Notes under the pieces: generated by a model
Seen by the model: only the letters and a program-made list of their open reading frames with translations
Databases searched by the model: none
Told to the model about the DNA's origin: nothing
NCBI GenBank assembly: GCA_046761065.1
Contig: JBHIFL010000031.1
Location: 1 to 46,833 of the forward strand
DNA length: 46,833 bases
Reading direction: 5' to 3'
Origin: Candidatus Heimdallarchaeota archaeon
GTDB lineage: Archaea; Asgardarchaeota; Wukongarchaeia; Wukongarchaeales; JBHIFL01
Part shown: positions 2,917 through 45,459 of the stretch, one piece after another
Layout of the letters: each line of letters starts with the position of its first letter
How positions within the stretch are numbered: the stretch's first letter is position 1
Made by a program: the position numbers and the translations under genes

Positions 2917-2954
2917 GTTCTATCGTATAAAGATATATCAAATAAAGACATAAT
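2917..2954 (+). promoter_or_regulatory. Putative operator, 3 units, upstream of Rieske pseudogene
   Basis: GTTCTATC-gtataaa-GATATATC-aaataaa-GACATAAT, just after TATA-like TTTATTAA. Confidence 0.65.
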
Positions 2955-2982
2955 GCAAAACAAGTTGTTGAGGAGAATGTAG

Positions 2983-3559: not shown

Positions 3560-3636
3560 GAGAGAGGACCGATGTAAACAAAAGTGCAATACTAACCTTT
3601 GGCTACATTTTATTTGCTTTTCTGAGGTTTGTTAAA

Positions 3637-3659
3637 AATATGTCTCACAAGGATATATA
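3637..3659 (+). promoter_or_regulatory. Putative operator upstream of ICMT-family pseudogene
   Basis: AATATGTC-tcacaag-GATATATA. Confidence 0.65.
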
Positions 3660-3815
3660 TCTTAAAAATGGTGGGATAAGATGAGAATGACAATCCTCCA
3701 TGTGGTTTAAGTTTACTACAACACGCTAAGCGTCAATAGCTATGGCAGGTCTGATATCATAACTGGCATGGAGCCTCCATTCAAATCCGAGAGATAATGA
3801 AGAACCAGAGGTCGG

Positions 3816-4418
3816 ATGATGTTGAAAACCTATGGCAGATGGGATCTACTGGTCGTCTGGGCTGTTTTACTCGGTCTATTCATAGTCTTTATCCCATTCA
3901 ATAGAAAGAGTCAGAAATGCCCAGCGAGCGTCTATATAGCCTTCGTCACAGCATTGGCCTTCAAAATGTTCGGTATTCCACTCAGCTTGTATATAATGAC
4001 TTGGGTTGTCGGTTTAACGTTACCAGAAGGGATACTTTGGGACCATACTCTACAACAATACGTGAGATATTGGGGAATGTATAAGATCCGCGATGAACCC
4101 AGTTGGAGTTCTCTTCGTAATCCTCGGATGGAAATAGATCCACAAACACTATTGGAGCAAAGAAGAGGGGAAAGGAAGGCTGGTTACGGGCGGATATCTA
4201 CACATACGTCCGCCATCTGCAATACATTGGCTTCCTTTTGCTCACATTGGGGATGCTCATTCACTGGGCAACTATCCCCTTGTTAATTAGTGTGGCCCAT
4301 CCTAGCGCTCCTATATTACCAGTTGGCTAAGAGAGAGGAGAAGGAGATGGAGAATGAGTTTGAAAACGATTACATCAAGTACAAGAGAACCCCTATATTC
4401 ATACCATTTTGGATGTAA
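3816..4418 (+). pseudogene. Isoprenylcysteine carboxyl methyltransferase (ICMT/PEMT)-family membrane protein, disrupted
   Basis: AFVTALAFKMFGIPL matches the intact paralog at 28135 (AFIIALFTEMFGIPL). YVRHLQY and LAKREEKEM lie in other frames, with an internal stop. Confidence 0.8.
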
Positions 4419-7479: not shown

Positions 7480-8220
7480 ACCGATATACCAATACTTCTC
7501 AAAGAGGATCTTGTACCCGTACCATATCTTGCGGACCCATTTGGGGCAGAATTCGAAGGGGCACTGTCATGTGGCTAGCTGCGGTTCCCCGCAAAATTTA
7601 CATATTATCGAATTCACTGGGATCCTTTTATCGCAATTAAAGCAGAAGATGTAATCCCTTCCTATGCTATCGGGAGTTCGAGCAGTTGGTTCTTCAAATA
7701 TGTCCCTTTTGTCGGTTCGATCACCCGTTTGTACAACGGGATATTCGGAACGGACAAGCAACCAGATGATGAAACCAATGACCATTGTAAAAAACACGAG
7801 CACTAGCCAGAGAGCTCCGTTCTGGCCTCGGGCTTCCACATCATGGTAAACCCAGACCGCAAGAAACGTCCCGAAAATGAACCAAGGGATCATCATGAGC
7901 ATGCCAAAGCCCACCCAACCGAATCCAAACATTCCACCCATTCCATGATTCAAATTTACCACCTGATGTTCACTATAGGCCCCCGTTCGGTATAGAAGTT
8001 GTCTCTGACCATGGTGGTCTTACCGAATCCGGTATCAATATCCATGCTTCCTTCTCCTTCCTCATAGTTCCGATTTCAGGAGGAGCGACACCCATAGGTC
8101 AGCCCTCGTATCGGGTCTTTCTGTCAACGAGTATCATCTCATATGTCTTCCCTGACTCTTGCTTAGCAGGTCGGAAGCCACATGACCCCCTATTCCACCG
8201 CCGAATATCAGAACCCTCAT
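7480..8220 (-). pseudogene. Sulfide:quinone oxidoreductase-like flavoprotein remnant, internally deleted and interrupted
   Basis: MRVLIFGGGIGG starts by ATGA overlap with the osmC-like stop. C-terminal pieces DIDTGFGKTTMVRDNFYTERGPIVNI (~7965-8050) and KIWYGYKILFEKYW (~7490-7530) flank the 7567..7962 ORF. Confidence 0.6.
7567..7962 (-). CDS. Membrane protein with C-terminal zinc ribbon
   Basis: Two TM helices (WVYHDVEARG..LW pattern) plus CFNC...CKFCG. Confidence 0.7.
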   Translation of the reverse strand: MVNLNHGMGGMFGFGWVGFGMLMMIPWFIFGTFLAVWVYHDVEARGQNGALWLVLVFFTMVIGFIIWLLVRSEYPVVQTGDRTDKRDIFEEPTARTPDSIGRDYIFCFNCDKRIPVNSIICKFCGEPQLAT

Positions 8221-8759
8221 CCATCCTGCCCCTCTCTTGTTACCTCTACGACCATCTTCACGGGGGTTGATAGGCAAAACACAGCGGGACACCTCGCCTC
8301 AGTGAGCTTCCGTAATTCTTGAATCTTTTCGTCACCAGCGTCTGTGTCTATCACTATCTGGAGTTTCACTTCCTCCACGATAGGATTTTCTGAGATACCC
8401 ATGGTTTTTGAGAAGTCCATATGGCTCTCGACCGTCACACTCATTTTCCTTAGAAGTACTCCCTCAGTGGCTGCGCTGGTGGCAAAGGTCGCGGCGGTGC
8501 ACGATGCTACGCCATAGAGACAGTAGTGCATAGGTCCGGGTCTTGTTCCCTCACCACCGAGAGAGGTGGGTTGATCCGCTTCGAGGGAGAACGTCCCCTT
8601 TTCTGTCTGGATTTCAGCTCGAAATTGAGGGTCTTCTGTGGCATCAAGAAGCCATTCACCCTCGATCCTTGTGATCTTCTTTGCTTCATTCGGATCTCCC
8701 ATCATCTTTTGACCCGTGTCTTCTAATCTATCTAAATTTACCCGATTCACAACATTCAT
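8217..8759 (-). CDS. OsmC-family protein
   Basis: ADQPTSLGGEGTRPGP, ASC...RCP conserved Cys pair. Confidence 0.9.
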   Translation of the reverse strand: MNVVNRVNLDRLEDTGQKMMGDPNEAKKITRIEGEWLLDATEDPQFRAEIQTEKGTFSLEADQPTSLGGEGTRPGPMHYCLYGVASCTAATFATSAATEGVLLRKMSVTVESHMDFSKTMGISENPIVEEVKLQIVIDTDAGDEKIQELRKLTEARCPAVFCLSTPVKMVVEVTREGQDG

Positions 8760-8766
8760 TCTTTTT

Positions 8767-9858
8767 TCACTTCCATTCTAATGGTTGCCAAGTTAAACCC
8801 AAGATACTCCCAATGAACATTAAGAGCGAGCCGAGCAGAAATCCCCACATGGTTGGAAAAGCAAGAACTGCAGCTATGAGAACCAAAGTGGCACCTGTCC
8901 GAATCCTATAGGGGTCAGAGCTGTTCATCCATAGAGCCCCAAAAGTTCCTAGCGTTGTCATCACCACCGCAAGAACAGCCCATGGTATGATCCAGCTAGA
9001 GCTCCAGATGAAGGCACCAGACATCCAAGCCCACATCATCCATGGTCCGGGAAGGGGAGTGAAGAACAGCATAGAAGTCATGAAAATTCCTGCTATCACC
9101 TGAAAGGCCACACCTGCAAGAGATAGCGTAAAAGCAGCTACTGGTCTCTCATCGGTGGTAGTCGTCATCGAACTTGGTTCGCGTTTCTTAGAGAGTAAAA
9201 GGGATCCAACTGCAAGTATCATTGCAAGGAACAGAGCTGGTGGCAGAAACGTCCAAGCTCCTAAACCTCCTAAAACATTCGTCGCATTGCTGGGTTCCAT
9301 GTGGGTTGAATCCACTCCATTTACGATGAGTTCTCCATGCATATCTTCATGTCCGACACCGCAGTAAATGGAACAATGAAAATGGACTTCCCCATTTTTG
9401 GTTGCCACAAATTCAATGGTAACCGTTTCACCCACGGGCAACGTATAATTCAACCCATACTCTTCAATTGCAATCCCATGATTGGGGAACATGCGTGCCA
9501 TCATTGGCATCATATTGTTGATGCTGCTTATTGTTAACCTCACGGTATCGTGCTCACTCACAAGAATAGCTGAGGGCTCAAATCTCCAATAGTAAGCCGT
9601 TATGGAAACCTCTTGCACCTTCCTCGTGGGTTCTTCCCAGTCTTCAACTTCTTCGTGATCTTCGTCCTCATCACCCATCATGGAGTCCTCGTCACCCATC
9701 ATGGAGTCCTCACTACTCATCATGCCATGATTGTCTTCGGCCGTCATGGGGCTCCCCCATATAGGGGACCAGGGGCCCATTACCATTGCTCCACCAACAA
9801 TGAGCCCCGCCCCAAGTATGACGGCGAGGGCCAGTACCAATACTTCAGTATCTTTCAA
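8767..9858 (-). CDS. Membrane-anchored CuA-type cupredoxin (COX2/NosZ C-terminal-like) with Met/acidic linker and C-terminal TM bundle
   Basis: HGIAI...CSIYCGVGHEDM matches H...CxxxCxxxHxxM CuA ligands; N-terminal TM; multi-TM C-terminus. Confidence 0.85.
   Translation of the reverse strand: MKDTEVLVLALAVILGAGLIVGGAMVMGPWSPIWGSPMTAEDNHGMMSSEDSMMGDEDSMMGDEDEDHEEVEDWEEPTRKVQEVSITAYYWRFEPSAILVSEHDTVRLTISSINNMMPMMARMFPNHGIAIEEYGLNYTLPVGETVTIEFVATKNGEVHFHCSIYCGVGHEDMHGELIVNGVDSTHMEPSNATNVLGGLGAWTFLPPALFLAMILAVGSLLLSKKREPSSMTTTTDERPVAAFTLSLAGVAFQVIAGIFMTSMLFFTPLPGPWMMWAWMSGAFIWSSSWIIPWAVLAVVMTTLGTFGALWMNSSDPYRIRTGATLVLIAAVLAFPTMWGFLLGSLLMFIGSILGLTWQPLEWK
9664..9726. repeat. 3 x 21-bp intragenic tandem repeat encoding (S/G)MM(GD/SS)ED
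   Basis: gtcctcatcacccatcatgga / gtcctcgtcacccatcatgga / gtcctcactactcatcatgcc. Confidence 0.9.
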
Positions 9859-12116: not shown

Positions 12117-12458
12117 CTATCTCACCACCGCCTCTTTGGCCAGTTTTTCCATCTCAGCCATCTGTTCAAACAAGACTTCCCTTATAAGGTCGCAGGCCTC
12201 GACCATTTTCGGATGTGCAATTTTATAGAAAATGTTAGTCCCCTCCTTCTTGGTGGAAACGACCCTCCTTTGCCTTAACACCGCGAGGTGTTGGGAGATG
12301 GTGGCTTGCCGGACACCTGTGAGGGCGGTTAACTCACTTACAGATCTCTCGCCCTCCCGAAGCAAACTCAAAATCTCTAACCTTGTGGGATTCGCGAGGG
12401 TCTTACAAAGCTCAGCGTGCAATTTGAAAATCTTTTTATCAATTTGAGCATTGCTCAT
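12117..12458 (-). CDS. ArsR/SmtB-family transcriptional regulator
   Basis: KTLANPTRLEIL, SVSEL, ISQHLAVLR. Start reassigned to ATG 12458. Confidence 0.92.
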   Translation of the reverse strand: MSNAQIDKKIFKLHAELCKTLANPTRLEILSLLREGERSVSELTALTGVRQATISQHLAVLRQRRVVSTKKEGTNIFYKIAHPKMVEACDLIREVLFEQMAEMEKLAKEAVVR

Positions 12459-12494
12459 GGAAGTATCCCACATCGCATTAATTGCATTATTAGT

Positions 12495-12506
12495 ATATTC
12501 GAATAT
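12495..12506. promoter_or_regulatory. Perfect 12-bp palindrome upstream of ArsR, candidate autoregulatory site
   Basis: ATATTCGAATAT. Confidence 0.4.
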
Positions 12507-12629
12507 TATTAAGTGTTTTGTTGTTTCAAAACCATGTGTTCTAAATGGTGGAGGCCACATCCATTAAACGTCCCTTTACGTCCCCGAGACCTTCTGATCT
12601 CCTCTCTCTTCGCCAGGTTTCGCGTCTAA

Positions 12630-16851: not shown

Positions 16852-18117
16852 TTATTGAGTAAGCATTACCTTTTGGGAACGGCGTCTGAATCCCTGCACA
16901 ATCTGTTGGAGTCCGCCCAACGAGTAGAAATACCTTATCTCGGTTAAAATCTTAAAGAACTTTCCAATCTTTCCAAGCAGCCGAACACTCCCCAATAGTG
17001 AGGCTCCTTCTTTTCTCCCTAGAGATATCGCGACCCCGCGGCGGCTAGGTTTGTACTCGCGCGTTCGTAACTTGCGTATCCTTGCAATCAAATGTTCGGC
17101 CACATAGGTTGCTTCATTGATGGCCATTTGTGCTGAGGGAATCACTGGCCGTCCAGTCTCAGGATCTATTTCGATTGAGGCGTCACCAATCACATACACA
17201 CCCTCATATCCCTCCGCTTCGAGGAATTGGTTGACTTTAGCCCTCCCTTGGTGATTTACGCGGAGCCCAGATCGTTCAATCAGTTCATTCCCTCTGATGC
17301 CTCCGGTCCAGACAAGAGTACGTGCATGGATTCTCTTGCCGTTGCTCAAAACGATTGTCTGTTTGTCAACGGATTGGATAGCGGCACCAAGGATAAGTTT
17401 GATTCCCTTCTCCTTTAAGATCTGATATGCATATCTCACCAAGGGCTGGTCGATACCCATCGTTTCCAGCGCTTCCACTGCAATAATTCGAATGTCGTCT
17501 TGATGGACACCATATCGCTCCTTAAGTTCTCTTATCCAGTCGGCCAGTTCCGTGACAAACTGCGTGCCCGCCGCTCCCACACCTCCTACGACAAACGTCA
17601 AGAGTTCTTTTCTCTTCTTGGCGTCTCGTTCCTGAACCGCTAACTCAAACATCACTAGGACATGAGTTCTAATCGCTTTCGCATTTTCGAGAGACCTCAG
17701 TGGGAATGCGGATTCCACTAGGCCGGGGATATTATAAAAGTTGGTTCTTCCTCCTAAGGCAATAATTAGAAAGTCATAAGAAATTCTACTTCCACTTACA
17801 AGGACAAATTTCTTCTCAAGATCTATCTCAGAGATTTTTGCCCGATGGAAGGTTATGTTCTTATTTCGAAAAATTTGTTCTAGCGGTATTTGGACTGCTT
17901 TGGGACTGATTCTACTGGTGGCAGCTTCATGAAGGTTCGGAATAAGTAAGTGATAGGCTTTCTCGTCGATGACGACGATATCGAGTTCTCCCCTCTGACT
18001 CAGTTCCTCTAGGGTTAGCGCCGTCCGAACTCCAGCCACGCCTGCTCCCAAGATTAATATCTTAGGTACGCTCTTTCCTGGGACTGGCTTGGTTGATTCA
18101 CTGTGATGTCTTATCAT
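16852..18117 (-). CDS. ndh: Type II NADH dehydrogenase (NDH-2)-family flavoprotein
   Basis: ILILGAGVAG, YDFLIIALG, VVGGVGAAG, WTGG, IGD, PSAQMA; start after GGAGG RBS. Confidence 0.85.
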   Translation of the reverse strand: MIRHHSESTKPVPGKSVPKILILGAGVAGVRTALTLEELSQRGELDIVVIDEKAYHLLIPNLHEAATSRISPKAVQIPLEQIFRNKNITFHRAKISEIDLEKKFVLVSGSRISYDFLIIALGGRTNFYNIPGLVESAFPLRSLENAKAIRTHVLVMFELAVQERDAKKRKELLTFVVGGVGAAGTQFVTELADWIRELKERYGVHQDDIRIIAVEALETMGIDQPLVRYAYQILKEKGIKLILGAAIQSVDKQTIVLSNGKRIHARTLVWTGGIRGNELIERSGLRVNHQGRAKVNQFLEAEGYEGVYVIGDASIEIDPETGRPVIPSAQMAINEATYVAEHLIARIRKLRTREYKPSRRGVAISLGRKEGASLLGSVRLLGKIGKFFKILTEIRYFYSLGGLQQIVQGFRRRSQKVMLTQ

Positions 18118-18167
18118 GTTCACAATCCTCCAAGTTTTGATCAAATTCAACATCATTTTCTTATAAG

Positions 18168-18190
18168 GATATATCTATATATGATATATC
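18168..18190 (-). promoter_or_regulatory. Putative operator (perfect consensus) upstream of ndh
   Basis: GATATATC-tatatat-GATATATC, downstream of minus-strand TTTTAAA. Confidence 0.8.
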
Positions 18191-20054: not shown

Positions 20055-20092
20055 ATTATATCTATAATAGATATGTCTATTATCGATCTATA
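20055..20092 (+). promoter_or_regulatory. Putative operator, 3 units, upstream of YHS-CBS-nuoD
   Basis: ATTATATC-tataata-GATATGTC-tattatc-GATCTATA after CTTAAAAA. Confidence 0.75.
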
Positions 20093-20123: not shown

Positions 20124-20270
20124 ATGGTGAAGGATCTAGTTTGTGGGATGGAAGTAAGCATCAGGACCGCGAAACACAAGACAGTACAAATGGGAAAGAC
20201 CTACTACTTTTGCTGTGCAATGTGTAAAGAATTGTTTGAAGCCAATCCCAACAAATACATGAGAATGTAG
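20124..20270 (+). CDS. YHS/TRASH-domain metallochaperone, 48 aa (not in ORF track)
   Basis: MVKDLVCGMEV...KTYYFCCAMCKELFEANPNKY. Confidence 0.9.
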   Translation: MVKDLVCGMEVSIRTAKHKTVQMGKTYYFCCAMCKELFEANPNKYMRM

Positions 20271-22457: not shown

Positions 22458-22883
22458 TCATAAGCGATGCAGTTGTCCCGTGGTGATGCAATTAGGACTA
22501 TCCGTATAGGTACTAAATTGTGTATACCCTTCGAAGGGTATGCTGCCTAGGTCTACCCACATCCGAATCTGATAGGATTTCTGGGTAGGCACTTTCACAG
22601 TAAAGAACCCATTGGCACCCGTAGTTGCTTCGCTTTCTTGGTGCACAAATTTGTCACTACTGTCTATGACATATCTAACCACAGTGTTTGGCAATTCTGC
22701 CGTACAACTAGCGGCGTGCCGGTAACAGGGATGGGTGTTATTGATATATGGCGCTATGTAAACCGTCGTTTCACCCCGCAGCTGATCGAGCTGTTGGGGG
22801 TGGAGTCTGTACCCAGCATAAAATCCCGTTACGATGCTGATAAGCCATACCACAACTACTATTGCTTTAACCTTTACTTTCAT
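22458..22883 (-). CDS. CueP-family extracellular copper-binding protein
   Basis: IAPYINNTHPCYRH..SC..EL, NGFF, ST...NCITTGQL resemble the CueP-family pattern (recognised from memory); N-terminal TM; GGAGG RBS. Confidence 0.75.
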   Translation of the reverse strand: MKVKVKAIVVVVWLISIVTGFYAGYRLHPQQLDQLRGETTVYIAPYINNTHPCYRHAASCTAELPNTVVRYVIDSSDKFVHQESEATTGANGFFTVKVPTQKSYQIRMWVDLGSIPFEGYTQFSTYTDSPNCITTGQLHRL

Positions 22884-23114
22884 GGTTATATTACCTCCAA
22901 TCACGAGCTTAACTGTCTTTTTTTCCCAAACCCGCTTCACACATCACTTTGTTATTATATAGGAACCAGTCTCCAATTAGAGAATACGCTCAAATAAGTA
23001 CGATGATCAAATGGATTCTGGCGATACTCTGTCTTTATTTCTATTGTTTACTACCGATTTAGGTATTCTTGGATGTTAGAGTTTTCATTTCAGCCTTTTG
23101 ATGTTTAACCAGTG

Positions 23115-23576
23115 TCAGACCGGTTGAAGTCCTTTGTCCAATTTGTAAGCGTTTGCGCAAGAGCTGCAACAGAAGACCATCTTCTGGCTTCCAATGATTT
23201 CGGTGTGCCCTCCATCGTACACTTTACACCCACAATTAGCACAAATGGTAAGCCCCGGTTCAATGGCCGCTGAAACAAGAGCCGCAAACCGTCTAAATAA
23301 GTGTTCGCAGAGGTCTTTCCCCTCTTCAGTAAGCGAATATTCCTTCTTCTCCTTTTTTCCTATTCTTTTAATACTAAGTCTAGCAAGTCCACGATCTTGG
23401 AGTTTTTGTAAGAAGGGATAAACAAGACTTGGGCTTACTTCCTTCTTCAATCTTTTCTTAAATTCGTTCAAAATACCATACCCATGTCTGGGACGTTCAT
23501 AGAGGAACATGAGAATATGAAATCGGGAAAAGTCGCCCAAAAGATTCTCTGTGGTTAGTTTATTTACTTTTATCAC
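23115..23576 (-). CDS. PadR-family wHTH regulator with C-terminal TRASH/YHS-like Cys domain
   Basis: ILMFLYERPRHGYGIL, SPSLVYPFL, KEYSLTEEG (PadR), then CANCGC...FCCSSCA. Likely GTG start 23576; ORF is open to 23657. Confidence 0.9.
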   Translation of the reverse strand: MIKVNKLTTENLLGDFSRFHILMFLYERPRHGYGILNEFKKRLKKEVSPSLVYPFLQKLQDRGLARLSIKRIGKKEKKEYSLTEEGKDLCEHLFRRFAALVSAAIEPGLTICANCGCKVYDGGHTEIIGSQKMVFCCSSCANAYKLDKGLQPV

Positions 23577-23729
23577 CTCTTCAAATTCACGAAAGTCGTT
23601 ATGTGGTTCACATGGCAATTTTGTGCAATTTTTAATGACCAAAGGACTATCATTCAATACAAGATCAGCTTAGGTAAAAAAATGAGGAAGTTGAGTGAAT
23701 GCTGTCAGGGGTTTGCTTCGGTGGGCGTA

Positions 23730-23873
23730 TTATTTGAGAAACTTGACCGGGTCGGCATCAAACGCTTTCTTGCAGCCTGGGGCACAAAAGTAGTACGTTG
23801 TCCCCTGGTACTCCGACTTCCACTTTGCCGTCTTCTCTTCGACGGTCATTTTGCAAACCGGATCGATTGCCAC
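23730..23873 (-). CDS. YHS/TRASH-domain metallochaperone, 47 aa (not in ORF track)
   Basis: MAIDPVCKMTV...TTYYFCAPGCKKAFDADPVKF; GGTG RBS. Confidence 0.92.
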   Translation of the reverse strand: MAIDPVCKMTVEEKTAKWKSEYQGTTYYFCAPGCKKAFDADPVKFLK

Positions 23874-24013
23874 GCTTTACACCTTTTCTTTTATCCTTTT
23901 ATATTTCTCGTGTGGAAATTTAGGTCTCCGAGCCTTTATGGCATTTATCCTTATCTTCACGATTCTCCCGTGATTGTGCATTGAAGATTGCATGTCCTCA
24001 ACTTATTACCTAA

Positions 24014-24036
24014 GATATATCATATAAAGATATGTC
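24014..24036 (-). promoter_or_regulatory. Putative operator upstream of YHS / PadR-TRASH / CueP (candidate autoregulatory site)
   Basis: GATATATC-atataaa-GATATGTC. Confidence 0.8.
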
Positions 24037-24546: not shown

Positions 24547-25765
24547 ATGAAAAAGGCAATTGCTCTGTTGGGTATTGTGGTTTTGTAAATCCTGTTCGTA
24601 ATCAAGGTTACTGGAGTACAGGAAGAAGAGGAGGAAGAACACGGACAAGAGGAGGCGAGGTATGGATATATTGGCTTAGAACCAGGAGAGGAAATAGAAG
24701 AGAAAGAGTTGGAGGAATTCGAAGAAAGGGTCATGGAGAAAGCCTACGCCAAAGCGAATGTGGACAAAGGACGGTTTATCATAATTGCCTTGCTCATCGC
24801 TCTGGTTTATTTGTCTTTTGCAAAGGTGAAAGGGGTAAGTACGAAGCTTAGATTGCTGCTAGACTGGTACTCCTTGGGTATCGTCACCAGTATCATCTTG
24901 GTTGGTTTAGTAATCCCCTCAGGAATCATCATCACCTTCTATTACATGCCTTCGCCCACAGGAGTATATTCGAGTGTGGAAGCCATGACTCAAAATTCAG
25001 TTCTTGCCTTCTTTCGAAACCTCCACGCCTGGTCCAGTGAGCTATTTCTCGTGTTAATGGTGTTGCACGTGGCCCGGACCATTTCCACGCAAACTTATCT
25101 GGGGAAACGGAAGATCATCTGGCTCACTGGCGCGCTGCTTCTGATTTTCAGATGGTTGGCTTTTGTCACTGGGACCTTCATGCGAAGATCAGGAGGCATT
25201 GGAAGGCTTTGAACATATCATGTTCGCCTTAACCTTGGTACCTCTGGGTAAATATTTCGCCGACTTTTTCGCCGGTGAGCTTGCAGTGATGAAGCTGACC
25301 GCCTTTAACATCGGGGTGACCACCTTTGTCATTGGTCTGTTAACCGCATTTCATGTGCTCATGCGGAAGGAGTACCTCCACGTGCTGCGGCGTTGGAAAA
25401 AAGCGGTGCTGTACTCGATAGCGATAGCAGGACTTCTCGTGGTGCAGAGCCTTGTAATGGAGATTCCCTTCATTCATGGGTTAGACAAAGGCCCCACGGT
25501 CTCTGGAGTCGAGATAACCAAGCCACCATGGACCATATATTTCATTGTCACTGGGGAAAACCTGTTCGGCGCCACCACCATGGTAGTCATCCCAGTTTTG
25601 GTCTTTCTACCACTACTAATCTTCCCTTACATCGTGGAGCGGCTTCCCCCGCTCAGCGAAAAGCGGACCCGCGCAGGTGAACTCCTCTTCTACTCGGGTA
25701 TCTATTTCCTGCTAGCGATATCCTACTGGGCAGCAGCCAGTGCAATCGTTACCCACATCTTCTAG
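24547..25765 (+). pseudogene. Cytochrome b (b/b6-like) with signal-like N-terminus and acidic extension, disrupted
   Basis: SGIIITFYYMP, RNLHAWSS, LHVAR, WLTG, KPPW. In-frame TAA near 24586 and frameshift near 25190. Confidence 0.8.
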
Positions 25766-26163: not shown

Positions 26164-26357
26164 GAGGCCTAGTGGTGCTCCATCTGGTGTGGTGTGAGCG
26201 ACGCAGGCAGATCAAAGATTTGGGACTCAGATCCCGTTATATAATCTAGCCTCCGTCGTGCCGCGAAGAGATGAGTGCCTCGCGAGGGCGGATAGCAATA
26301 TGTTGGTGTTACCTCCATCGACGGACCTCACACCCCCCTTTTGGAGCACTAGCCCTC
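26164..26357 (+). ncRNA. Candidate IS110 bridge/seek RNA
   Basis: Nested helices GTGCTCCA/TGGAGCAC, GGTGTGAG/CTCACACC, CGACG-AGGC-AGAT/ATCT-GCCT-CGTCG, GGGA/TCCC; internal-loop strands match the right end. Confidence 0.6.
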
Positions 26358-26378
26358 TTAATAAAGGTGGTGATCCTA

Positions 26379-27761
26379 TTGACTAGAACGAGAAAGAGGC
26401 ATTACGCCTCTAGTAAGAGCATCTCGCGATCCAAATCCCTGAAGGAACTTGTCCAGCCGATTGCACCCCACAAAGTGACCGAACTGACTATTGCTTGCGG
26501 GGTCGATGTTCATAAGAAGTTCTTCGTCGCCACGCTCCTAGTAAGAGCGTCTGACCAGAAGAAAGTGGCCAAGTTTGGCCGGCGCTTGGAGGATCTCTTA
26601 AGCTTCAAGAGCTGGCGCTTGGAGCATCATTGCCGCTATGTGGCTGTGGAATCGACGGGAGTCCTCTGGTGGCCCCTCTATGCGGCGCTGCAGGACCAGA
26701 TCCAGATCTTTGTGGTCAATGCCTTCAAAATCAAGGACAAAGCCGAGAAGAAGAGCGATAGGAGCGACTCGGAACGCATGGCCCTATTACTGCTGAAAGG
26801 ACAGCTCGACCCCTCCTATATTCCTGGTGTAGAGAGGGAGGCCCTGCGTAGTTTAGCCCGGTTCCGGGTGAAGCACGTGGAAACCCGAACCCGGTACAAG
26901 AATCGCGTCCACAAGATCCTGGAAAAGACCAACATCCGCTTGGGCAGCGTCTTGAGTGATGTCTTTGGGGCTGCGGGCAAAGAGGTACTCCGGGGGCTCA
27001 TGGAAGGCCAACCTCCCCAGGAGATCGTGGCGCGGCTCACGCACAAGCGGATTCGGGAAAAACAGGCCCAACTAGAGGAAATCCTTCAGACCAAGTTGTG
27101 CGCGGCCGATATTCTGATCCTGCGCCAATGCCTAGAGGTGATCGAGCAGTGTGACACGCAGATCAAGGAACTCAATAATGAACTCACCGTACTGGTCAAG
27201 AAATTAAGTCTAGAACAGCAGCTAGGCATTTTGTTAAGCATCCCCGGGGTGAGTTTCATCTCTGCGGCCTTACTTCTCGCAAAAATTGACGAGATCTCGC
27301 GCTTACTCCGCCCAGAACATTTAGTCTCCTATGTGGGGCTCGCCTCGACGACATACCAGTACGGGGGGAAATTGGTCACCGGGCACATTACGAAACGCGG
27401 GTCCTGGTATTTGCGACGGACGATGGTACAGGTCGCCCATGCCCTTGTGTACGCCAAGCACCCGTTACAACTAAAAAAATTCTTCCACCGCCTCGTCCAC
27501 CGCAAAGGGAAGCGGATAGCCATAGTCGCATTGGCGAGGAAGGTGTTGGCGCTCAGTCATCATCTCCTAACCCAAGGCGAGCTTTTCGAGGATGGGTATT
27601 TCCGTAAACGCGCAAAACCAAAAGTACCCCGAGGACGCCCCGAGCTGGAACAGCTGTCCCGGGATCAGATGATTACCATGTTGAAGCAAGCAGGATACAC
27701 CGTAAGATCCCCGGTGCCTTCTTTGATTTCCCGCCCGCAAATCAAGTTGCCAGCTGGCTGA
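26379..27761 (+). CDS. IS110-family DEDD recombinase/transposase
   Basis: GVDVHK, VAVESTG, KSDRSD (DEDD), SIPGVS, VALARK. Start set to TTG after GGTGGTGA RBS. Confidence 0.92.
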   Translation: MTRTRKRHYASSKSISRSKSLKELVQPIAPHKVTELTIACGVDVHKKFFVATLLVRASDQKKVAKFGRRLEDLLSFKSWRLEHHCRYVAVESTGVLWWPLYAALQDQIQIFVVNAFKIKDKAEKKSDRSDSERMALLLLKGQLDPSYIPGVEREALRSLARFRVKHVETRTRYKNRVHKILEKTNIRLGSVLSDVFGAAGKEVLRGLMEGQPPQEIVARLTHKRIREKQAQLEEILQTKLCAADILILRQCLEVIEQCDTQIKELNNELTVLVKKLSLEQQLGILLSIPGVSFISAALLLAKIDEISRLLRPEHLVSYVGLASTTYQYGGKLVTGHITKRGSWYLRRTMVQVAHALVYAKHPLQLKKFFHRLVHRKGKRIAIVALARKVLALSHHLLTQGELFEDGYFRKRAKPKVPRGRPELEQLSRDQMITMLKQAGYTVRSPVPSLISRPQIKLPAG

Positions 27762-27811: not shown

Positions 27812-27834
27812 GATATATCCATAATAGATATATA
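27812..27834 (+). promoter_or_regulatory. Putative operator upstream of DUF2933-ICMT-HTH
   Basis: GATATATC-cataata-GATATATA immediately after TTTTATTT. Confidence 0.78.
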
Positions 27835-27886: not shown

Positions 27887-28132
27887 GTGTATGAAATGGA
27901 ATCACGTAAAATACCTTCCCAATACCTAACAAGATCGGATTATAGATCGAATCGTCACTATTTTTTGATCCTATTCTGTGGGCTATCAATGTTTACCATC
28001 TTGGCACTATTCGTGGTTTCTCGCCAATTAAATTACTTGGTATTGGGGTTATTTCTCTTATGTCCGTTATTACATCTCTTAACAGTGCCGAAATCTCACT
28101 ATCAATGGTTAAATGGCCATAAAGAGGAGTAA
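27887..28132 (+). CDS. DUF2933-like small membrane protein
   Basis: Two TMs ending LLCPLLHL; directly before an ICMT-family gene. Confidence 0.65.
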   Translation: MYEMESRKIPSQYLTRSDYRSNRHYFLILFCGLSMFTILALFVVSRQLNYLVLGLFLLCPLLHLLTVPKSHYQWLNGHKEE

Positions 28133-28134
28133 AG

Positions 28135-28788
28135 ATGACAATGGACGACTACGCCTATGGAAATTGGTTTGCCGTAGTAGTTAGCATCGGAATTTTTTCA
28201 ATCTTCATTCTGAGCTTCTTTGCTCCCTTTAAAAAGCGTGATTGGCGCTCAGCGGGCTTATATGAGGCTTTCATCATCGCATTGTTTACCGAGATGTTTG
28301 GTATTCCCTTAACGATCTATATGTTATCTTCTATCTTTGGAGCACAGCTATCGTTTGGACACATAGAAGGCCATCTCTTGGCAACCGCATTAACCTGCTT
28401 TGGGTTCAAAATGGAATCCATGTGGTTGCTTGTAATGGTGCTAAGCTCTCTGGTCATAATGATCGGGTTTGGCTTGATGGCACGGGGTTGGCGACTCATT
28501 CATCAGACCAAAGGTAAACTTGTCACTACGGGAGTCTATGCATATGTCCGCCATCCCCAATATCTGGGGCTTCTACTGATCACGAGTGGCTTCTTGGTAC
28601 AATGGCCCACATTAATTACATTAGCTATGTGGCCCTTTCTCGCTTTAATGTACTATCGGTTAGCCCAACAAGAAGAGCATGCCTTAGATTCCGTTTTTGA
28701 ATCGAAATACCGAGAATATAAACAGAACACTCCAGGCTTTTTCCCACATCTTACCCGTTTCAACCCAAGGAGTGCTAGTTCCAAATAA
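28135..28788 (+). CDS. Isoprenylcysteine carboxyl methyltransferase-family membrane protein
   Basis: LVTTGVYAYVRHPQY, QWPT, QEE, TPGFFP. Confidence 0.9.
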   Translation: MTMDDYAYGNWFAVVVSIGIFSIFILSFFAPFKKRDWRSAGLYEAFIIALFTEMFGIPLTIYMLSSIFGAQLSFGHIEGHLLATALTCFGFKMESMWLLVMVLSSLVIMIGFGLMARGWRLIHQTKGKLVTTGVYAYVRHPQYLGLLLITSGFLVQWPTLITLAMWPFLALMYYRLAQQEEHALDSVFESKYREYKQNTPGFFPHLTRFNPRSASSK

Positions 28789-28800
28789 TTGCTCCGAGGT

Positions 28801-29061
28801 ATGGGTTCTATGAGTTCCCCTATTAACTTTGAAATAATAATGGCTAAACTACCTCCATCGGCGCAAAAAATCTATCTACTCCTTGCAGCTGAGGAAAACG
28901 GATTAACCACCAAGGAAATAGTGAGACGTGTGACCTTTACAAGTCGAACTGTACGGTACGCTCTCAAGAAGCTCTTAGCAATGGGGCTTATCCAGAGATC
29001 CCCCTACTTACTGGACATGCGCCAATTCAAATATCGAATCTCTAAAGTTGAAACAAGATAA
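28801..29061 (+). CDS. Small archaeal winged-helix DNA-binding protein
   Basis: LPPSAQKIY...RTVRYALKKL...DMRQ. Confidence 0.8.
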   Translation: MGSMSSPINFEIIMAKLPPSAQKIYLLLAAEENGLTTKEIVRRVTFTSRTVRYALKKLLAMGLIQRSPYLLDMRQFKYRISKVETR

Positions 29062-29171: not shown

Positions 29172-29208
29172 TATATGTCTATATGGATATATCTATATTT
29201 GATATATA
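29172..29208 (+). promoter_or_regulatory. Putative operator upstream of htpX
   Basis: TATATGTC-tatatg-GATATATC-tatattt-GATATATA (first spacer 6 bp), overlapping TTTTTATA. Confidence 0.78.
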
Positions 29209-29287: not shown

Positions 29288-30193
29288 GTGGGGTTTGGAA
29301 AAACGATGATGAGGACGACCATTCTTTTTATGGCTCTCTTCCTTGTCTTTTATGCGATTACGCTTGTGTTCGACCTTCTCTGGTATTGGGCGCTGCTTTT
29401 TATGAGCCTTATTGTGTTCATAAGCTATTGGACCTCTGATCGGATTGTCCGGCGAATGGCAGGTGCGCGGCTTGTCACCGAAGCCGAGGCTCCTGAATTA
29501 CATGCCATTGTTGATAGTTTGGCCCAAAAAGCGGGCCTTCCCAAGCCACGAGTAGCTATCGTAGATAATCCCGTCCCAAACGCCTTCGCAACGGGACGAT
29601 CGCCTAAAAAGGCCGTCATTGCCGTTCATACTGGATTATTGAACGCTTTAAATCAAGAAGAACTCGAAGGTGTTATTAGTCACGAATTAACACATGTTCG
29701 GAACTGGGATACCTTAATCATGGCAATCGCCGCAGTTGTTGCGGGGACGATTGCATTCGTGGCTCGAATGGCCTTTTGGTTCTCCTTAAGCTCGCGGGAT
29801 TCCCGCAGTCGCACCTCTCCTTATGCGGTGATTATTGCATGGCTTTTAGCTCCAATTGCGGCTCTCTTGATTCAACTGGCGATTTCACGGGGACGGGAAT
29901 ATGCCGCCGATCGGGGTGGAGCTGAACTCACAGGTCGACCGATAGCCTTGGCGAATGCCTTAGAAAAGATCCATTTATATAAACAAAAACGTCCATTGAC
30001 TGTGGAAAAAGCCAATCCTGCAATAGCTCACCTCTATATCATTAACCCGTTTCGAAGTCAGGGGCTCGTTGGATTGTTTTCGACACACCCCTCCTTGGAA
30101 GATCGAATCAAGCGGTTAGAAGCAATGAAAGGCCTCAAATTTGCTCGAAGGCCTAGGGAACTACGCCCAGAGGACTTTACCATTGTTTCCTGA
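29288..30193 (+). CDS. htpX: Membrane zinc metalloprotease HtpX (M48)
   Basis: PNAFATGR, HELTH, SRGREYAAD, FSTHP. Confidence 0.95.
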   Translation: MGFGKTMMRTTILFMALFLVFYAITLVFDLLWYWALLFMSLIVFISYWTSDRIVRRMAGARLVTEAEAPELHAIVDSLAQKAGLPKPRVAIVDNPVPNAFATGRSPKKAVIAVHTGLLNALNQEELEGVISHELTHVRNWDTLIMAIAAVVAGTIAFVARMAFWFSLSSRDSRSRTSPYAVIIAWLLAPIAALLIQLAISRGREYAADRGGAELTGRPIALANALEKIHLYKQKRPLTVEKANPAIAHLYIINPFRSQGLVGLFSTHPSLEDRIKRLEAMKGLKFARRPRELRPEDFTIVS

Positions 30194-30397: not shown

Positions 30398-30420
30398 ATT
30401 ATCTCTAAATAAGATATATC
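30398..30420 (+). promoter_or_regulatory. Putative operator upstream of copA
   Basis: ATTATCTC-taaataa-GATATATC after CTTAAAA. Confidence 0.65.
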
Positions 30421-30456
30421 TATGATGACTATATTACTCTTGAGGAGGACTACAAA

Positions 30457-32958
30457 TTGACACAAAAAAAGAAAGTCTCTTTGTTAATTCAAGGGATGCA
30501 CTGCGCGTCCTGTGCAGTGAACATCCAAAAGGAGCTCTCCAAGCAAAGTGGAGTGGTCGAAGCAAATGTAAACTTTGCCACAGAAAAAGCCACCGTCATG
30601 TACGACCCTGATATCACAGCGCCTACAGACCTTATTAACGCGGTTCATGACAGCGGATATGAAGCGGTTGTCGAGAAGGTAACGATTCCTATTGGTGGAA
30701 TGACCTGCGCCTCATGTGCGGCAACAGTCGAAAAAGCCCTAACCAAAGTAGATGGAGTTGTCAACGTCAACGTCAATTTTGCCACTGAGAAAGCAACTGT
30801 TAAATTCGTGCCTTCTGCAATTGGGATTAGGGACTTGAGGAAGGCGGTCGAGGCGGCTGGATATCAAGCGCTCGAAGTGGTCGAGGGAGATGGCGTTGAG
30901 GACAGAGAGCGAAAGGCTCGTCTTAAGGAGATCCAGTATCTTAAGACGCGGTTTATTGTTGGTGCTCTTCTCTCGATGTTGATCTTTGGGGGGAGTTTTC
31001 CTGAGTGGGTTCCGATCCTCCGCTCTCTTGAGATTGCCGATCAAACCCGCTTTTTTGGATTGCTGATCCTTACTACGCCGGTTCAGTTTTGGGTTGGGTG
31101 GCGGTTTTACACCGGGACGTATGCCGCGTTTAAACGCAAGTCGGCGGACATGAACGTCCTGATCGCGATCGGAACTACCGCAGCGTATCTATATAGTCTG
31201 GCTGCGACGTTCTTTCCCGTGTTTTTTACGTCCTCAGGTTTAGTTCCTGAAGTTTATTTCGATACTGCCGCAATAATCATCACACTGATCGTGCTAGGGA
31301 GACTGCTTGAAGCGAGAGCGAAAGGCCAGACTTCTGAGGCGATCAAGAAGTTGATGGGGCTACAAGCAAAGACAGCTCGCGTAGTCCGGGATGGTGAAGC
31401 GATCGACATCCCTATTGAGGAAGTTCAAGTCGGAGATCTCGTCGTGGTGCGCCCGGGGGAGAAAATCCCTGTTGATGGCCTGATAAAAGAGGGCTACTCC
31501 ACCGTTGACCAGTCGATGATTACCGGAGAAAGCATTCCTGTCGAGAAAAAGGAGGGGGATGAGGTCATCGGGGCCACGATCAACAAAACAGGTATGTTCA
31601 AGTTTGAAGCCACAAAGGTGGGGAAAGACACTGCGCTTGCGCAAATAATTAAGCTAGTCGAAGATGCTCAAGGATCGAAAGCCCCCATTCAGCGTCTAGC
31701 GGACACAGTGGCGGGGATTTTCGTTCCTGCCGTGATCATTATTGCGGTTGCCACCTTCGCCGTTTGGTACTTTTTTGGCCCGACCCCTGCATTCACCTTC
31801 GCCATGTTGAACTTTGTTGCCGTGTTGATCATTGCCTGCCCCTGTGCACTGGGGTTAGCTACTCCAACGGCCATAATGGTTGGCACGGGAAAGGGAGCTG
31901 AAAACGGGGTGCTTATCCGGGGTGGGGAAAGTTTGGAGACCGCCCACAAGATTAACACCATCATATTCGATAAGACTGGGACCCTCACACGAGGTGAACC
32001 GGCAGTTACTGACATTGCACCTGCAACGGGGTTTTCAAGCGATGAAGTTTTGCTATTAGCTGCGATCGTGGAGAAGGGTTCAGAACATCCACTAGGAGAA
32101 GCCATTGTCCATCACGCTAAAGAAAGGAAACTTCAGCTCGAAGACTCAGAAGAGTTCGCCGCAGTTCCTGGCCACGGCGTACGAGCTAAAGCCAAAGGTA
32201 GAGAAGTTGTTCTAGGCAATGCTCGATTGATGAGGAAGGAACACATAGACATCAGAGACTTGGAAACCATCGCTGTGGCATTCTCGGAGGATGGGAAGAC
32301 CCCCATGTACATCGGGGTCGATGGGATTGCTGCAGGAGTTATCGCCGTGGCAGACACCCTCAAACCGAATTCTTTGGGAGCTGTTGCGGAATTGCATAAG
32401 TTAGGGGTTGAAGTGGTTATGATCACGGGAGATAACGAGAGGACTGCGAAGGCTATCGCAAGACAGGTTGGTATTGACCGGGTTCTTTCCGAGGTTCTTC
32501 CAGACGATAAGGCAAAGGAAGTGAAAGCCCTTCAAGACGAGGGCAAGATCGTGGCGATGGTCGGCGATGGAATCAACGATGCACCCGCTCTAGCTCAGGC
32601 GGATGTGGGAGTTGCGATCGGAACAGGGACGGATGTTGCAATGGAAGCTTCGGATATCACTTTGATCACCGGGGACTTACAGGGAGTAGTCACTGCGATT
32701 CAGTTGAGCAAGAAAACGATGCGAACTATCAAACAAAATCTTTTCTGGGCCTTTGGGTACAATACTGCGTTTATTCCGATTGCAGCGGGGATTTTGTACC
32801 CGTTTCTCGGCATTTTGCTCAATCCGATCTTTGCGGCGGTGGCGATGGCTGCTAGCTCGGTGTCGGTAGTCTCGAACTCGTTGCGGCTCCGGAGGTTCTC
32901 CCTTCCCCGACTGGCGCCGAAGGGTTCACCCACGATTAGCAAATCAGTGCCCACCTAG
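30457..32958 (+). CDS. copA: Cu(I)-exporting P1B-1 ATPase
   Basis: Two GMxCASC HMA domains, CPC, DKTGT, YN (TM7), MAASS (TM8). Confidence 0.96.
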
Positions 32959-42530: not shown

Positions 42531-43292
42531 TTAGCGAACTTTCGCCTTCTTGTAGAAAGCAGCTGTAGCGAAGCCCCAAACTATCAAGAGATAGGAAATC
42601 GCCAAGAACAAGTACGATACGGTGTCGAAGATTCGGGTGAAGGAAGCATCCATGAGGATCTTTGTCGTACTATATCCTGGCAACACTTTCATCCAGAGGG
42701 GGGGAGTGACGCTAGTGAACGTGAGCAGTGGAAATGAAACGAGTCCAAAATCCAGCATGGGTAGCGAGAACATTAGCCATGCTCCTCCAGTTTTCTCGGT
42801 GAAGTTACCGACCAGCACACCGATGCTGCCGTATATGAACGCGCTGAGAAAGATTGATAAAGAAAAGAGTGGAATATTGACAGGGGTAAAGCCTTCTAGC
42901 GTCACGCCCACGGAAACAACGGTCACTAACAACGTCACCAGTGCGAGAGTTGAGAGTCTTGACACAATGATCTCTGATGGCTTGTAGCCTGCTAGGACTA
43001 GTCTTCTATCAGCGTCTTTCGAGCTCAGCATCATGAAAACGCCAGCGAGGCCTGCAAGGAATGTTGCAGTGATTGGGGCCATGATGGCCCCATGAAACTC
43101 AGGCATGGATAATTGGAGGACTGATTCGACTCCGTTTTCCGTTGTCTCGTACAGAATTTGTCCGCGGGGAGTTATGCGAAAGGAGGCGGTGATGAATAGG
43201 AATGGGAGCACTATCAGGAAAACCAATGCCAGCTTGTTCCTGAAGTACTCTTTGCTGTTCAAGAGGAAGGCTGTTCGAATTCTTGTCGCCAT
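42531..43292 (-). CDS. ABC-2-type transporter permease
   Basis: Six-TM profile; SKDADRRLVLAGY shared with the neighbouring permease. Confidence 0.85.
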   Translation of the reverse strand: MATRIRTAFLLNSKEYFRNKLALVFLIVLPFLFITASFRITPRGQILYETTENGVESVLQLSMPEFHGAIMAPITATFLAGLAGVFMMLSSKDADRRLVLAGYKPSEIIVSRLSTLALVTLLVTVVSVGVTLEGFTPVNIPLFSLSIFLSAFIYGSIGVLVGNFTEKTGGAWLMFSLPMLDFGLVSFPLLTFTSVTPPLWMKVLPGYSTTKILMDASFTRIFDTVSYLFLAISYLLIVWGFATAAFYKKAKVR

Positions 43293-43305
43293 CGCTATTC
43301 CCTTC

Positions 43306-44031
43306 CTAGTGTATCTTTGTTGCTTTGTAGAACACCATGGCTGCTGCGATCCAGCTGACACCCAGATAAGCTATGGAGAGCATCATGTCCCCACCGTTCC
43401 AGGTTCCAAAGAGCGCGGCGTCTTGGAGGACACGAGTGGGGTAGTGCAACGGCAACCAACTGAGCCACGCCTCACCTCCAGCAACTGAGCTGGTGCCGAG
43501 AAACGCATCGAACATGAATATAAAAATCACAGCGAAGGATCCTTCGAACTCTTGACCAATGAGGGAACCTACAGTTATGCCTACACTCCCGTAAATCATT
43601 GCTGAAACGTACAAAGCGGAGAAAGTGATCGGCAGATTCCGCGGCTCGAAATAGAGAAACAAAGTCGCAAAGCTGATTGAGGTAGCGAGAAGCCCGATGA
43701 AAATCGTGGCAAAGATCCTGGAAAACACCACTTCACTTGACCTGTAGCCTGCTAGTATGAGTCTTCTGTCCGCGTCTTTGGAACTTAGGATCATGGATAG
43801 GCCTAATATCCCGGTGAGGATAGCTGCACTCCACTGTGCTGAAACAACCCTCCCCAGATTTCTGACGAATATTGCCACAAACTGTTCGGGCAGTCTGCGC
43901 ATAGCTGAGTCGAAACCAGTGATGAATAAGAAGGGAATCAGTACCAATAGGATGATATTAGTCTTGTTTCTTAGATACTCCTTGCTATCCATCCAGAAAG
44001 CTTTCCGAAACTTCCTGATGTTGGTTTTCAT
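43306..44031 (-). CDS. ABC-2-type transporter permease
   Basis: Six-TM profile; SKDADRRLILAGY. Confidence 0.85.
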   Translation of the reverse strand: MKTNIRKFRKAFWMDSKEYLRNKTNIILLVLIPFLFITGFDSAMRRLPEQFVAIFVRNLGRVVSAQWSAAILTGILGLSMILSSKDADRRLILAGYRSSEVVFSRIFATIFIGLLATSISFATLFLYFEPRNLPITFSALYVSAMIYGSVGITVGSLIGQEFEGSFAVIFIFMFDAFLGTSSVAGGEAWLSWLPLHYPTRVLQDAALFGTWNGGDMMLSIAYLGVSWIAAAMVFYKATKIH

Positions 44032-44656: not shown

Positions 44657-44813
44657 AGTTCATCACATCCTGCTTTCAATCTCAAGTTACGCGTCGCAGA
44701 AGTCTGCCCTGAACCCCCATTATTAAGGGCTTTTTAAAGGTCTCTCGTTCCATCTTTGTTCTTCTCTTGTATTCTTCCAAGAATAGCACTTGTTTTCTTA
44801 TTTCAGATGCTTC

Positions 44814-45417: not shown

Positions 45418-45436
45418 TTATTTCATTACTTATCAA

Positions 45437-45459
45437 GATATATCTTTATGTGATATTTT
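45437..45459 (-). promoter_or_regulatory. Putative operator upstream of the hypothetical/ABC genes
   Basis: GATATATC-tttatgt-GATATTTT. Confidence 0.65.

Follow-up and report, generated by a model that had tools for sequence, protein, structure and literature searches.

A PadR-TRASH fusion protein as a candidate copper-responsive repressor of a metal-related gene island in a Heimdallarchaeota genome

To our knowledge, archaeal copper sensing has been studied only for the Lrp-type regulators CopR and CopT of a few cultured thermophiles and halophiles. In bacteria, the CopY proteins of Enterococcus hirae and other Firmicutes are small winged-helix repressors of the BlaI/MecI type with a C-terminal cysteine cluster (CxCx4CxC); they occupy a dyad operator ahead of the cop operon until Cu(I) frees them, and delivery by the CopZ chaperone is documented. 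In archaeal CopR, the TRASH domain contributes to the copper response (PMC7830388), which provides a precedent for the mechanism proposed below. PadR proteins form a different family of regulators, in which Tyr20, Tyr42 and Lys67 of the Bacillus subtilis representative contact DNA (PMC5728393) and the canonical operator is an inverted ATGT/ACAT repeat with a spacer of 8-10 nt (PMC3506622). Here, we describe a protein that combines a PadR DNA-binding domain with a TRASH domain, encoded at positions 23115..23657 (minus strand) of contig JBHIFL010000031.1 of the Candidatus Heimdallarchaeota archaeon assembly GCA_046761065.1 (46,833 nucleotides, analysed in full and hereafter called the window). 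We consider it reasonably likely that this PadR-TRASH protein is a metal-released, Cu(I)-responsive repressor that controls the copper regulon of the island through a shared palindrome.

The maximal open reading frame (ORF) of the regulator gene comprises 180 codons with a TTG start, and its product matches Pfam models of both domains above the cut-off. The PadR winged helix-turn-helix (wHTH) and the long helix that follows it (23310..23516, minus strand; residues 48-116) match PF03551 (E 3.6e-13; 49.8 bits, cut-off 27), and the TRASH domain (23142..23243, minus strand; residues 139-172) matches TRASH_HVO_1752_C, PF24273 (E 1.5e-6; 28.7 bits, cut-off 27), a model that scores the protein at 30.5 bits when run over the genome. 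All NCBIfam PadR matches were sub-threshold. The cysteines are arranged as C139-x2-C142-x-C144 ... F162-C163-C164-x2-C167, so that the fusion of a PadR wHTH to a C-terminal CxxCxC...FCCxxC domain, which had been recognised from the sequence alone, stands as described. The TRASH signature, reportedly given by Ettema et al. in 2003 as C-x2-C-x19-22-C-x3-C, is present as C139-x2-C142-x20-C163-x3-C167, together with two additional conserved cysteines, C144 and C164. Among 117 homologues, C139, C142, C163, C164 and C167 are invariant, and C144 is present in at least 90%. A 167-aa version of the protein, starting at 23618, is found in the protein database. The homologues are mostly about 150 aa long and align from about residue 28-37 onward; therefore, the true start is probably internal to the maximal ORF, at the TTG at 23618 or the GTG at 23576.

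The regulator belongs to the PadR family by its profile match, by its wHTH with a C-terminal helix (the subfamily-2 type) and by the Tyr/Tyr/Lys signature. Residues Y60, Y80 and K104/K105 align with Tyr20, Tyr42 and Lys67/68 of B. subtilis PadR, and Y60, Y80, K105 and the recognition helix SPSLVYPFL are invariant among the 117 homologues. The AlphaFold model (mean predicted local distance difference test score 85.8) consists of the wHTH, the long helix and a small beta/helix cysteine module, with helices at 9-27, 32-43 and 49-61, followed by the beta wing and a helix at 84-105. All Foldseek matches to this model were PadR proteins, the top ones with a probability of 1.0, and the best were Rv3488, TA0346, LmrR and the B. 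subtilis PadR-DNA complex. Sequence matches in the PDB cover the wHTH part only and end before the TRASH domain, and none of these solved structures spans the fusion. A two-copy homodimer prediction scored 0.13 against a mark of 0.42 and gave no verdict. The regulator is thus a PadR subfamily-2-like winged helix whose C-terminal helix leads into a six-cysteine TRASH module.

Comparison with CopR and CopT, represented by Pyrococcus furiosus PF0739, the proteins of Thermococcus and Saccharolobus and Halobacterium VNG1179C, shows the same order of an N-terminal DNA-binding domain and a C-terminal TRASH domain (PMC7830388). As in those systems, genes of this type lie by copA and by a gene for a small TRASH/YHS-type protein, and a multi-promoter copper regulon appears to be connected through a shared (semi-)palindromic promoter site. 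However, CopR and CopT carry an Lrp/AsnC-type helix-turn-helix, whereas the DNA-binding domain here is a PadR wHTH, and no AsnC/Lrp match was obtained with Pfam, NCBIfam, the PDB or Foldseek; for this reason, the protein is not a member of the CopR family, even though it probably works like one. A RAM or Lrp oligomerisation domain is absent as well, hence the octamer with which CopR wraps about 150 bp is not expected. The operators also differ, the CopR site TTNNCAWWWTGNNAA lying upstream of the TFB recognition element (BRE) and the palindrome described here, GATATATC-N7-GATATATC, over the TATA box; the conserved cysteines number six, compared with four in CopR.

With B. subtilis PadR and Lactococcus LmrR, both of them repressors that bind inverted repeats, the PadR-TRASH protein shares the wHTH fold and the Tyr/Tyr/Lys signature, and its putative operator resembles theirs (PMC5728393, PMC3506622); its short form with a single C-terminal helix resembles PadR subfamily 2. 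PadR and LmrR respond to aromatic compounds, held in a pocket between domains or within the dimer, whereas the effector proposed here is a metal on an added cysteine domain; the half-sites, ATAT(C), are separated by 9 nt and each is lengthened into a palindrome of 8 bp, and the host is an archaeon, so that the target would be the TATA/TFB step. The best structural match of the wHTH and helix is Mycobacterium tuberculosis Rv3488, of PadR subfamily 2 (PDB 5zi8/5zhc; TM 0.84 on the target), which lacks a TRASH domain and whose NCBIfam family matches the regulator only weakly (23 bits compared with a family cut-off of 140). Halobacterium salinarum RosR (PDB 6qfd) is likewise an archaeal stress regulator with a PadR-type wHTH that acts on a palindromic site; unlike the PadR-TRASH protein, it serves the oxidative stress response, has no metal-binding tail and uses another motif (PMC7145548). 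CopY offers a likeness in working rather than in descent: no BlaI/MecI-type Pfam match was found at E <= 1 and the cysteine spacing is different, so that the regulator may resemble CopY functionally without being one.

The regulator gene lies between a YHS gene upstream and a CueP-family gene downstream, all three on the minus strand, in the arrangement that the sequence-only reading had described. The consensus operator that it placed upstream of this unit, at 24014..24036, proved to be a genuine palindrome that is enriched in the window and conserved near foreign homologues. The site reads GATATATCATATAAAGATATGTC, that is, GATATATC ATATAAA GATATGTC, with a single mismatch to GATATATC-N7-GATATATC (pattern GATATATC-N7-GATATRTC) and with a spacer that reads TTTATAT on the minus strand. 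Written as GATATATC-N7-GATATGTC, it obtains a score of 26.4 with the matrix described below and ranks fourth in the genome. The core of the motif is ATATC-N7-GATAT, and the full 23-bp unit consists of two palindromic GATATATC octamers placed 15 bp apart. The likeness of ATRT-N9-AYAT to PadR dyads was also sustained, given that ATAT-N9-ATAT comes near the canonical ATGT/ACAT repeat with its spacer of 8-10 nt. This pattern occurs 16 times in the window, where 2.8 occurrences are expected, and 0 of 100 shuffles reached 16. The exact core occurs 18 times in the 4.42-Mb genome, with eight copies on this 46.8-kb contig (1% of the genome) and two on contig C30; the extended motif with up to three mismatches occurs 14 times on this contig (C31), nine times on C30 and once on C64, where it is located 81 bp upstream of a PadR-TRASH paralogue.

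Octamers show one preferred distance only, 15 bp, and they do so in the window, elsewhere in the genome and at 80 foreign loci. The sequence-only reading had interpreted this spacing as cooperative binding; the distance itself is real, but it mainly separates the paired octamers within each 23-bp operator, and as evidence of multi-dimer binding we have set it aside. Only some promoters have a third phased octamer, which creates two overlapping operators. In the window, these are 2917/2932, 20055/20070 and, in a weaker form, 30398/30413, where the second copy has three mismatches and falls under the matrix cut-off; further examples are found on C30 and in several other genomes. At such three-octamer sites, more than one dimer may bind.

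For the connection between regulator and operator, we examined 180 nt upstream of 80 regulator loci from different species (52-63% protein identity), including Asgard archaea and Brockarchaeota. The most enriched 8-mer upstream of the regulator is GATATATC, found at 66 of the 80 loci and in 14 of 4518 background windows (0.3%); the core with up to one mismatch occurs at 40 loci (about 1.9% per locus expected) and the exact core at 14 (0.2% per locus expected), counts that overstate the significance to the extent that kin among the loci are not independent, although the footprint itself is plain. The conservation of the upstream motif holds in the Asgard genomes G023 and G037 as well. A matrix was trained solely on the 40 foreign upstream sites and then scanned over the present genome, in which it found 44 matches, 14 of them on this contig. 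The 11 best matches are confined to C31, C30 and C64, the three contigs on which PadR-TRASH genes are located, and one of the next five is located on C14 between a YHS gene and a third CopA gene. The neighbours of the foreign regulator genes include copA (30/80), an ABC ATPase (29/80), YHS (26/80) and ICMT (9/80). The motif is non-random and conserved, it holds a defined position relative to gene starts and to foreign regulator genes, and it is accompanied by copper-type neighbours.

Given the matrix trained on foreign sites, the enrichment of GATATATC upstream of the homologues and the adjacency of copA, it is very probable that the PadR-TRASH protein controls its own expression and, by covering TATA boxes, represses a copper regulon. 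The spacers of the operators are A/T-rich and TATA-like (TTTATAT, TTTATAA, TATAATA, TAAATAA), and in five units the operator centres lie 23-48 nt ahead of the start codons, where a TATA box is expected; the bound protein would thus cover the TATA box of leaderless or short-leader genes. In the proposed mechanism, the metal-free protein, presumably a dimer like other members of the family, would bind the 23-bp palindrome and exclude TBP and TFB from the promoter, of which the spacer would be the TATA box. Cu(I), and probably Ag(I) too, would bind to the TRASH cysteines located behind the dimerisation helix, with all six conserved cysteines potentially taking part in Cu(I) sensing; this binding would shift the two wHTH domains relative to each other, the regulator would leave the DNA and the regulon would be derepressed. 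Within the island, this regulon is predicted to comprise the regulator's own YHS / PadR-TRASH / CueP operon (24014-24036), CopA, an atypical ATPase with a YPC motif, a second YHS gene, a Met-rich cupredoxin with OsmC, an NDH-2-like oxidoreductase, an M48 protease, an ICMT-like unit and an ABC-2 transporter; beyond the island, it would extend to sites on C30, C64 and C14.

Several observations weigh against this interpretation. We infer the identity of the binder, the sign of the regulation (repression), the metal and the allosteric step, and the margin of PF24273 over its cut-off is narrow. Three intact paralogues in the genome share an identical recognition helix, so that any of them may read a given site. 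In the window, the gap between the YHS gene and the regulator has no operator, and the 24014 site lies 152 nt from the YHS start. Because this operator precedes YHS rather than the regulator directly, autoregulation here would require co-transcription, so that of the autoregulation claimed earlier, the part that held is the octamer or palindrome directly upstream of the regulator in other species. The NDH-2-like, OsmC, M48, ICMT and ABC-2 genes of the regulon are not copper-specific. In addition, the co-occurrence of regulator and motif across genomes, which had been put forward as a check, revealed no enrichment among 201 Asgard genomes, in which the strict 23-mer with up to one mismatch was compared with the presence of the regulator. 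The motif was detected in 37 genomes, 11 of which have the regulator at E <= 1e-25 and 14 at E <= 1e-15, an overlap about equal to chance given base rates of 31-36%; this test is a blunt one, as half of the true autoregulatory sites carry at least two mismatches and a reversed control pattern matches 12 of the 201 genomes. Among five motif-rich genomes scored as lacking the regulator, two (G168 and G053) encode a divergent PadR-TRASH protein adjoining copA, with the motif directly ahead of copA in G168 and, in the pair, before copA or an ABC unit; one has the motif ahead of a TRASH-less PadR with an ABC unit, and two have other repeats. Near the motif, G134 shows only a TRASH-less PadR, with the motif ahead of it, and G129 nothing recognisable. 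The mismatched sites and the particular genomes other than G129 account for part of the missing enrichment.

Alternative explanations differ in which part of the proposed scheme they replace. The same protein and operator could respond to Zn, Cd, Hg or Ag alone or to thiol oxidation and control a general metal or redox stress regulon, a view to which OsmC, the NDH-2-like enzyme with its disulfide-oxidoreductase fold, M48, the ICMT-like protein, ABC-2 and the YPC ATPase would lend themselves; furthermore, TRASH is a generic Cys4 zinc-ribbon-like site, and ABC-2 transporters neighbour the regulator about as often as copA does (29/80 and 30/80). We nevertheless regard a signal other than Cu(I) as unlikely, because the recognisable metal genes are all of the copper type (CopA with CPC, YN and MxxSS, CueP, YHS and the Met-rich cupredoxin) and copA elsewhere is divergent from the motif or directly behind it. 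Similarly low is the probability that we assign to the island operators being read mainly by another paralogue (C30 12508-12969 or C64 21625-22065), with the window copy being redundant, or else adapted to a different metal or range of affinities. The three intact copies, 60-65% identical, have the same invariant recognition helix, and sites of the same consensus occur on all of their contigs, but the window copy is intact and resides in an operator-headed operon, on the contig that is richest in sites (14 of 44 matrix matches and 8 of 18 exact cores).

Repression itself could be replaced by copper-dependent activation or dual regulation, as in Pyrococcus CopR, which in P. furiosus was proposed to remain on the DNA and to activate once metal is bound (PMC7830388), and several sites are indeed found in divergent regions (2917-2954) or at over 90 nt from the start that follows (24014, 29186). 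In most units, however, the A/T-rich spacer occupies the expected TATA position, 23-48 nt before the start codon, and the characterised PadR proteins are repressors released by a ligand (PMC5728393), so that an activating role seems quite unlikely. That the PadR-TRASH gene is merely a target, and that the motif is bound by another island factor, is very improbable: the MarR-like gene (28789-29061), the alternative binder named in the sequence-only reading, does sit in an operator-headed unit, but homologues of it and of the ArsR-like gene near 12117-12560 are absent from all 80 loci that conserve the motif just ahead of the PadR-TRASH gene, and the motif itself shows the PadR-type ATRT/AYAT dyad; both were rejected as binders. 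We give still less credence to the octamer pair belonging to the basal promoter or marking where a mobile element ends, as might be suggested by the TATA-like spacer, the IS110 and DDE transposases, the G+C content of the island (45.8% compared with 42.0%) and a near-identical 23-mer with the spacer CCGTGAAT or its reverse complement that is repeated on several contigs of G134 and G185. Against it stand the restriction of the motif to metal-related promoters on 4 of 234 contigs, its absence from the transposase ends and its conservation ahead of the regulator across phyla.

The metal-released PadR-TRASH repressor remains our preferred interpretation, and the protein family is not confined to this genome. 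A search of 5.8 billion proteins recovered 130 clusters, with E values down to 1e-98, nearly all of about 150 aa and annotated merely as PadR-family regulators, the hosts being Bathyarchaeia and Heimdall- and Loki-type Asgard archaea. Among 1.84 billion representatives, a profile search found 41 clusters with E <= 1e-30 and 216 with E <= 1e-10, and 263 stretches of species-representative genomes carry the family. In the sampled Asgard genomes, the regulator is encoded by 63 of 201 at E <= 1e-25 and by 73 at E <= 1e-15. In the literature searched on PadR, TRASH domains and archaeal copper sensing, neither a PadR-TRASH regulator nor its operator turned out to be described. The family appears to be a second, independently assembled copper-sensing solution in archaea, widespread in Bathyarchaeia and in the uncultured lineages closest to eukaryotes. 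Its short, palindromic and conserved operator would allow copper regulons to be predicted straight from metagenome-assembled genomes (MAGs), and places ICMT-like methyltransferases, M48 proteases, ABC-2 exporters, the YPC P1B ATPase and archaeal CueP in a putative copper or metal-stress context. The regulator is small and soluble and could also act as a compact metal-responsive switch. A broader and tentative proposal, which we hold to be doubtful as a whole, is that copper in Asgard archaea, Bathyarchaeia and related uncultured archaea is sensed mainly by PadR-TRASH, not CopR, with a six-cysteine Cu(I) site, with 15-bp-phased arrays of two to three octamers bound as a higher-order assembly, with a regulon that extends past efflux to respiration and membrane-protein maintenance (the NDH-2-like enzyme, cupredoxin, M48 protease, ICMT-like methyltransferase and ABC-2 exporter), and with paralogues that share one operator and form a graded or multi-metal switch.

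In the operon of the regulator, the first recognisable gene encodes a YHS small protein of 47 aa (23730..23873, minus strand; PF04945, E 2.4e-17) and the last a CueP-family protein with an N-terminal hydrophobic segment (22458..22940, minus strand; PF21172, E 5.9e-16; NCBIfam CueP_fam, 64.1 bits with a cut-off of 60). Between the operator and the YHS gene lies a 38-codon Lys/Arg-rich ORF (MQSSMHNHGR..., 23877-23993, minus strand), which begins 32 nt past the operator centre. It was rejected as a gene, having no Pfam match and not being kept as an ORF in a duplicate of the operon on C30, and the region is possibly a 5' leader. The C30 duplicate holds another small hydrophobic ORF in the corresponding place.

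Across the 47-kb island, related sites stand at the head of nine promoter regions, which belong to two P1B ATPases, two YHS genes and the cupredoxin, NDH-2-like, M48, ICMT and ABC-2 genes; the copper-type genes of the window are the CPC/YN/MxxSS CopA, CueP, the two YHS genes and the Met-rich cupredoxin. The canonical Cu(I)-type P1B-1 ATPase CopA (30457..32958, plus strand) contains two HMA domains along with the motifs CPC, YN and MxxSS, and its operator or operators (30398..30435) are centred 33-48 nt before its start. The site with the top matrix score in the genome (9873..9895) is centred 26 nt before the gene of the Met-rich cupredoxin (8767-9858, minus strand), which is followed by the OsmC gene (8217-8759, minus strand), and a perfect copy of the operator (18168..18190) is centred 23 nt before the Pyr_redox_2 (NDH-2-like) gene (16852-18156, minus strand). 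Two overlapping operators (20055..20092) have their centres 33-58 nt before the second YHS gene (20124-20270, plus strand), which is followed by a CBS gene and a NuoD-like gene. Another overlapping pair (2917..2954) occupies the divergent region between orf 2552, with the P1B ATPase gene (106-2526, minus strand), and orf 2983-3258 (plus strand); its centres are 40 nt before orf 2983 and 62-77 nt before orf 2552, which precedes the atypical ATPase. In this ATPase, YPC replaces CPC, the YN and MxxSS motifs are missing and HMA domains are present at both ends.

The remaining sites are an operator at 27812..27834, centred 64 nt before a unit of orf 27887-28132, an ICMT-like gene (28135-28788) and the MarR-like wHTH gene (28789..29061, plus strand; weak MarR/HTH_24 matches); one at 29186..29208, centred 91 nt before the M48 peptidase gene (29288-30193, plus strand); and one at 45437..45459, centred 12 nt before orf 45152-45436 (minus strand), which is accompanied by ABC / ABC-2 transporter genes (42531-44656, minus strand). 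A small hydrophobic ORF followed by an ICMT/PEMT-like membrane methyltransferase gene is a recurrent operator-headed unit, present in the window (27887-28788), on C30 (5065-6001) and in the MAG L091 (901-1554). Operons of an ABC ATPase and an ABC-2 permease likewise recur behind the operator, in the window (42531-45459), on C30 (9993-12969) and in other Asgard genomes, including G053 and G134; the C30 ABC-2 operon terminates in a PadR-TRASH gene.

The three intact PadR-TRASH paralogues of the genome, namely the window copy, C30 12508-12969 and C64 21625-22065, are accompanied by one decayed copy. On C30, a duplicate YHS / PadR-TRASH / CueP operon, an ICMT unit, an ABC-2 / PadR-TRASH operon and a P-type ATPase gene each lie behind the motif, and the related Heimdall-type MAG L091 repeats the whole layout, including the unit of a small ORF and ICMT with the motif. 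The decayed C30 copy (2980-3600, minus strand) has two frameshifts, one in helix 1 behind GDFSRF and the other within the TRASH domain. The shift in helix 1 corresponds to a one-base loss in a T run and is common to the L091 orthologue (3380-4130), which adds a TAG there; because it is shared with an orthologue in another MAG, the broken copy looks like an old decaying gene rather than an assembly error. A third cop locus, on C14 (4327-7742), is without a regulator; it combines the operator GATATATTAAAATAAGATATATC with a YHS gene, two ORFs (one small and Gly/Met-rich, the other a membrane ORF) and a second canonical CopA (CPC, YN, MAASS). Run over this 91%-complete genome, the TRASH model detected no gene of the CopR type.

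The island has a G+C content of 45.8%, compared with 42.0% for the genome, and contains transposase genes of the IS110 type (26271-27761) and the DDE type (45557-46822), and neither the regulator nor the motif was found in the two genomes of the same order that were sampled. These features fit a mobile metal-resistance island that was acquired or duplicated. In the related Asgard genomes G134 and G185, the near-identical 23-mer reads GATATATC ATTCACG GAGATATC or, as the reverse complement, GATATCTC CGTGAAT GATATATC, at G134:C108:10148, G185:C42:15414, G185:C378:44548 and G185:C110:2031, and looks like a repeated element, not a copper operator. Finally, a cytochrome b-like gene of the window is broken into the overlapping ORFs 24709-25212 and 25163-25765; the split resembles the effect of one extra base near 25180-25190 (FMR|EDQEALEGFEH) and could be either a real frameshift or an error in the MAG.

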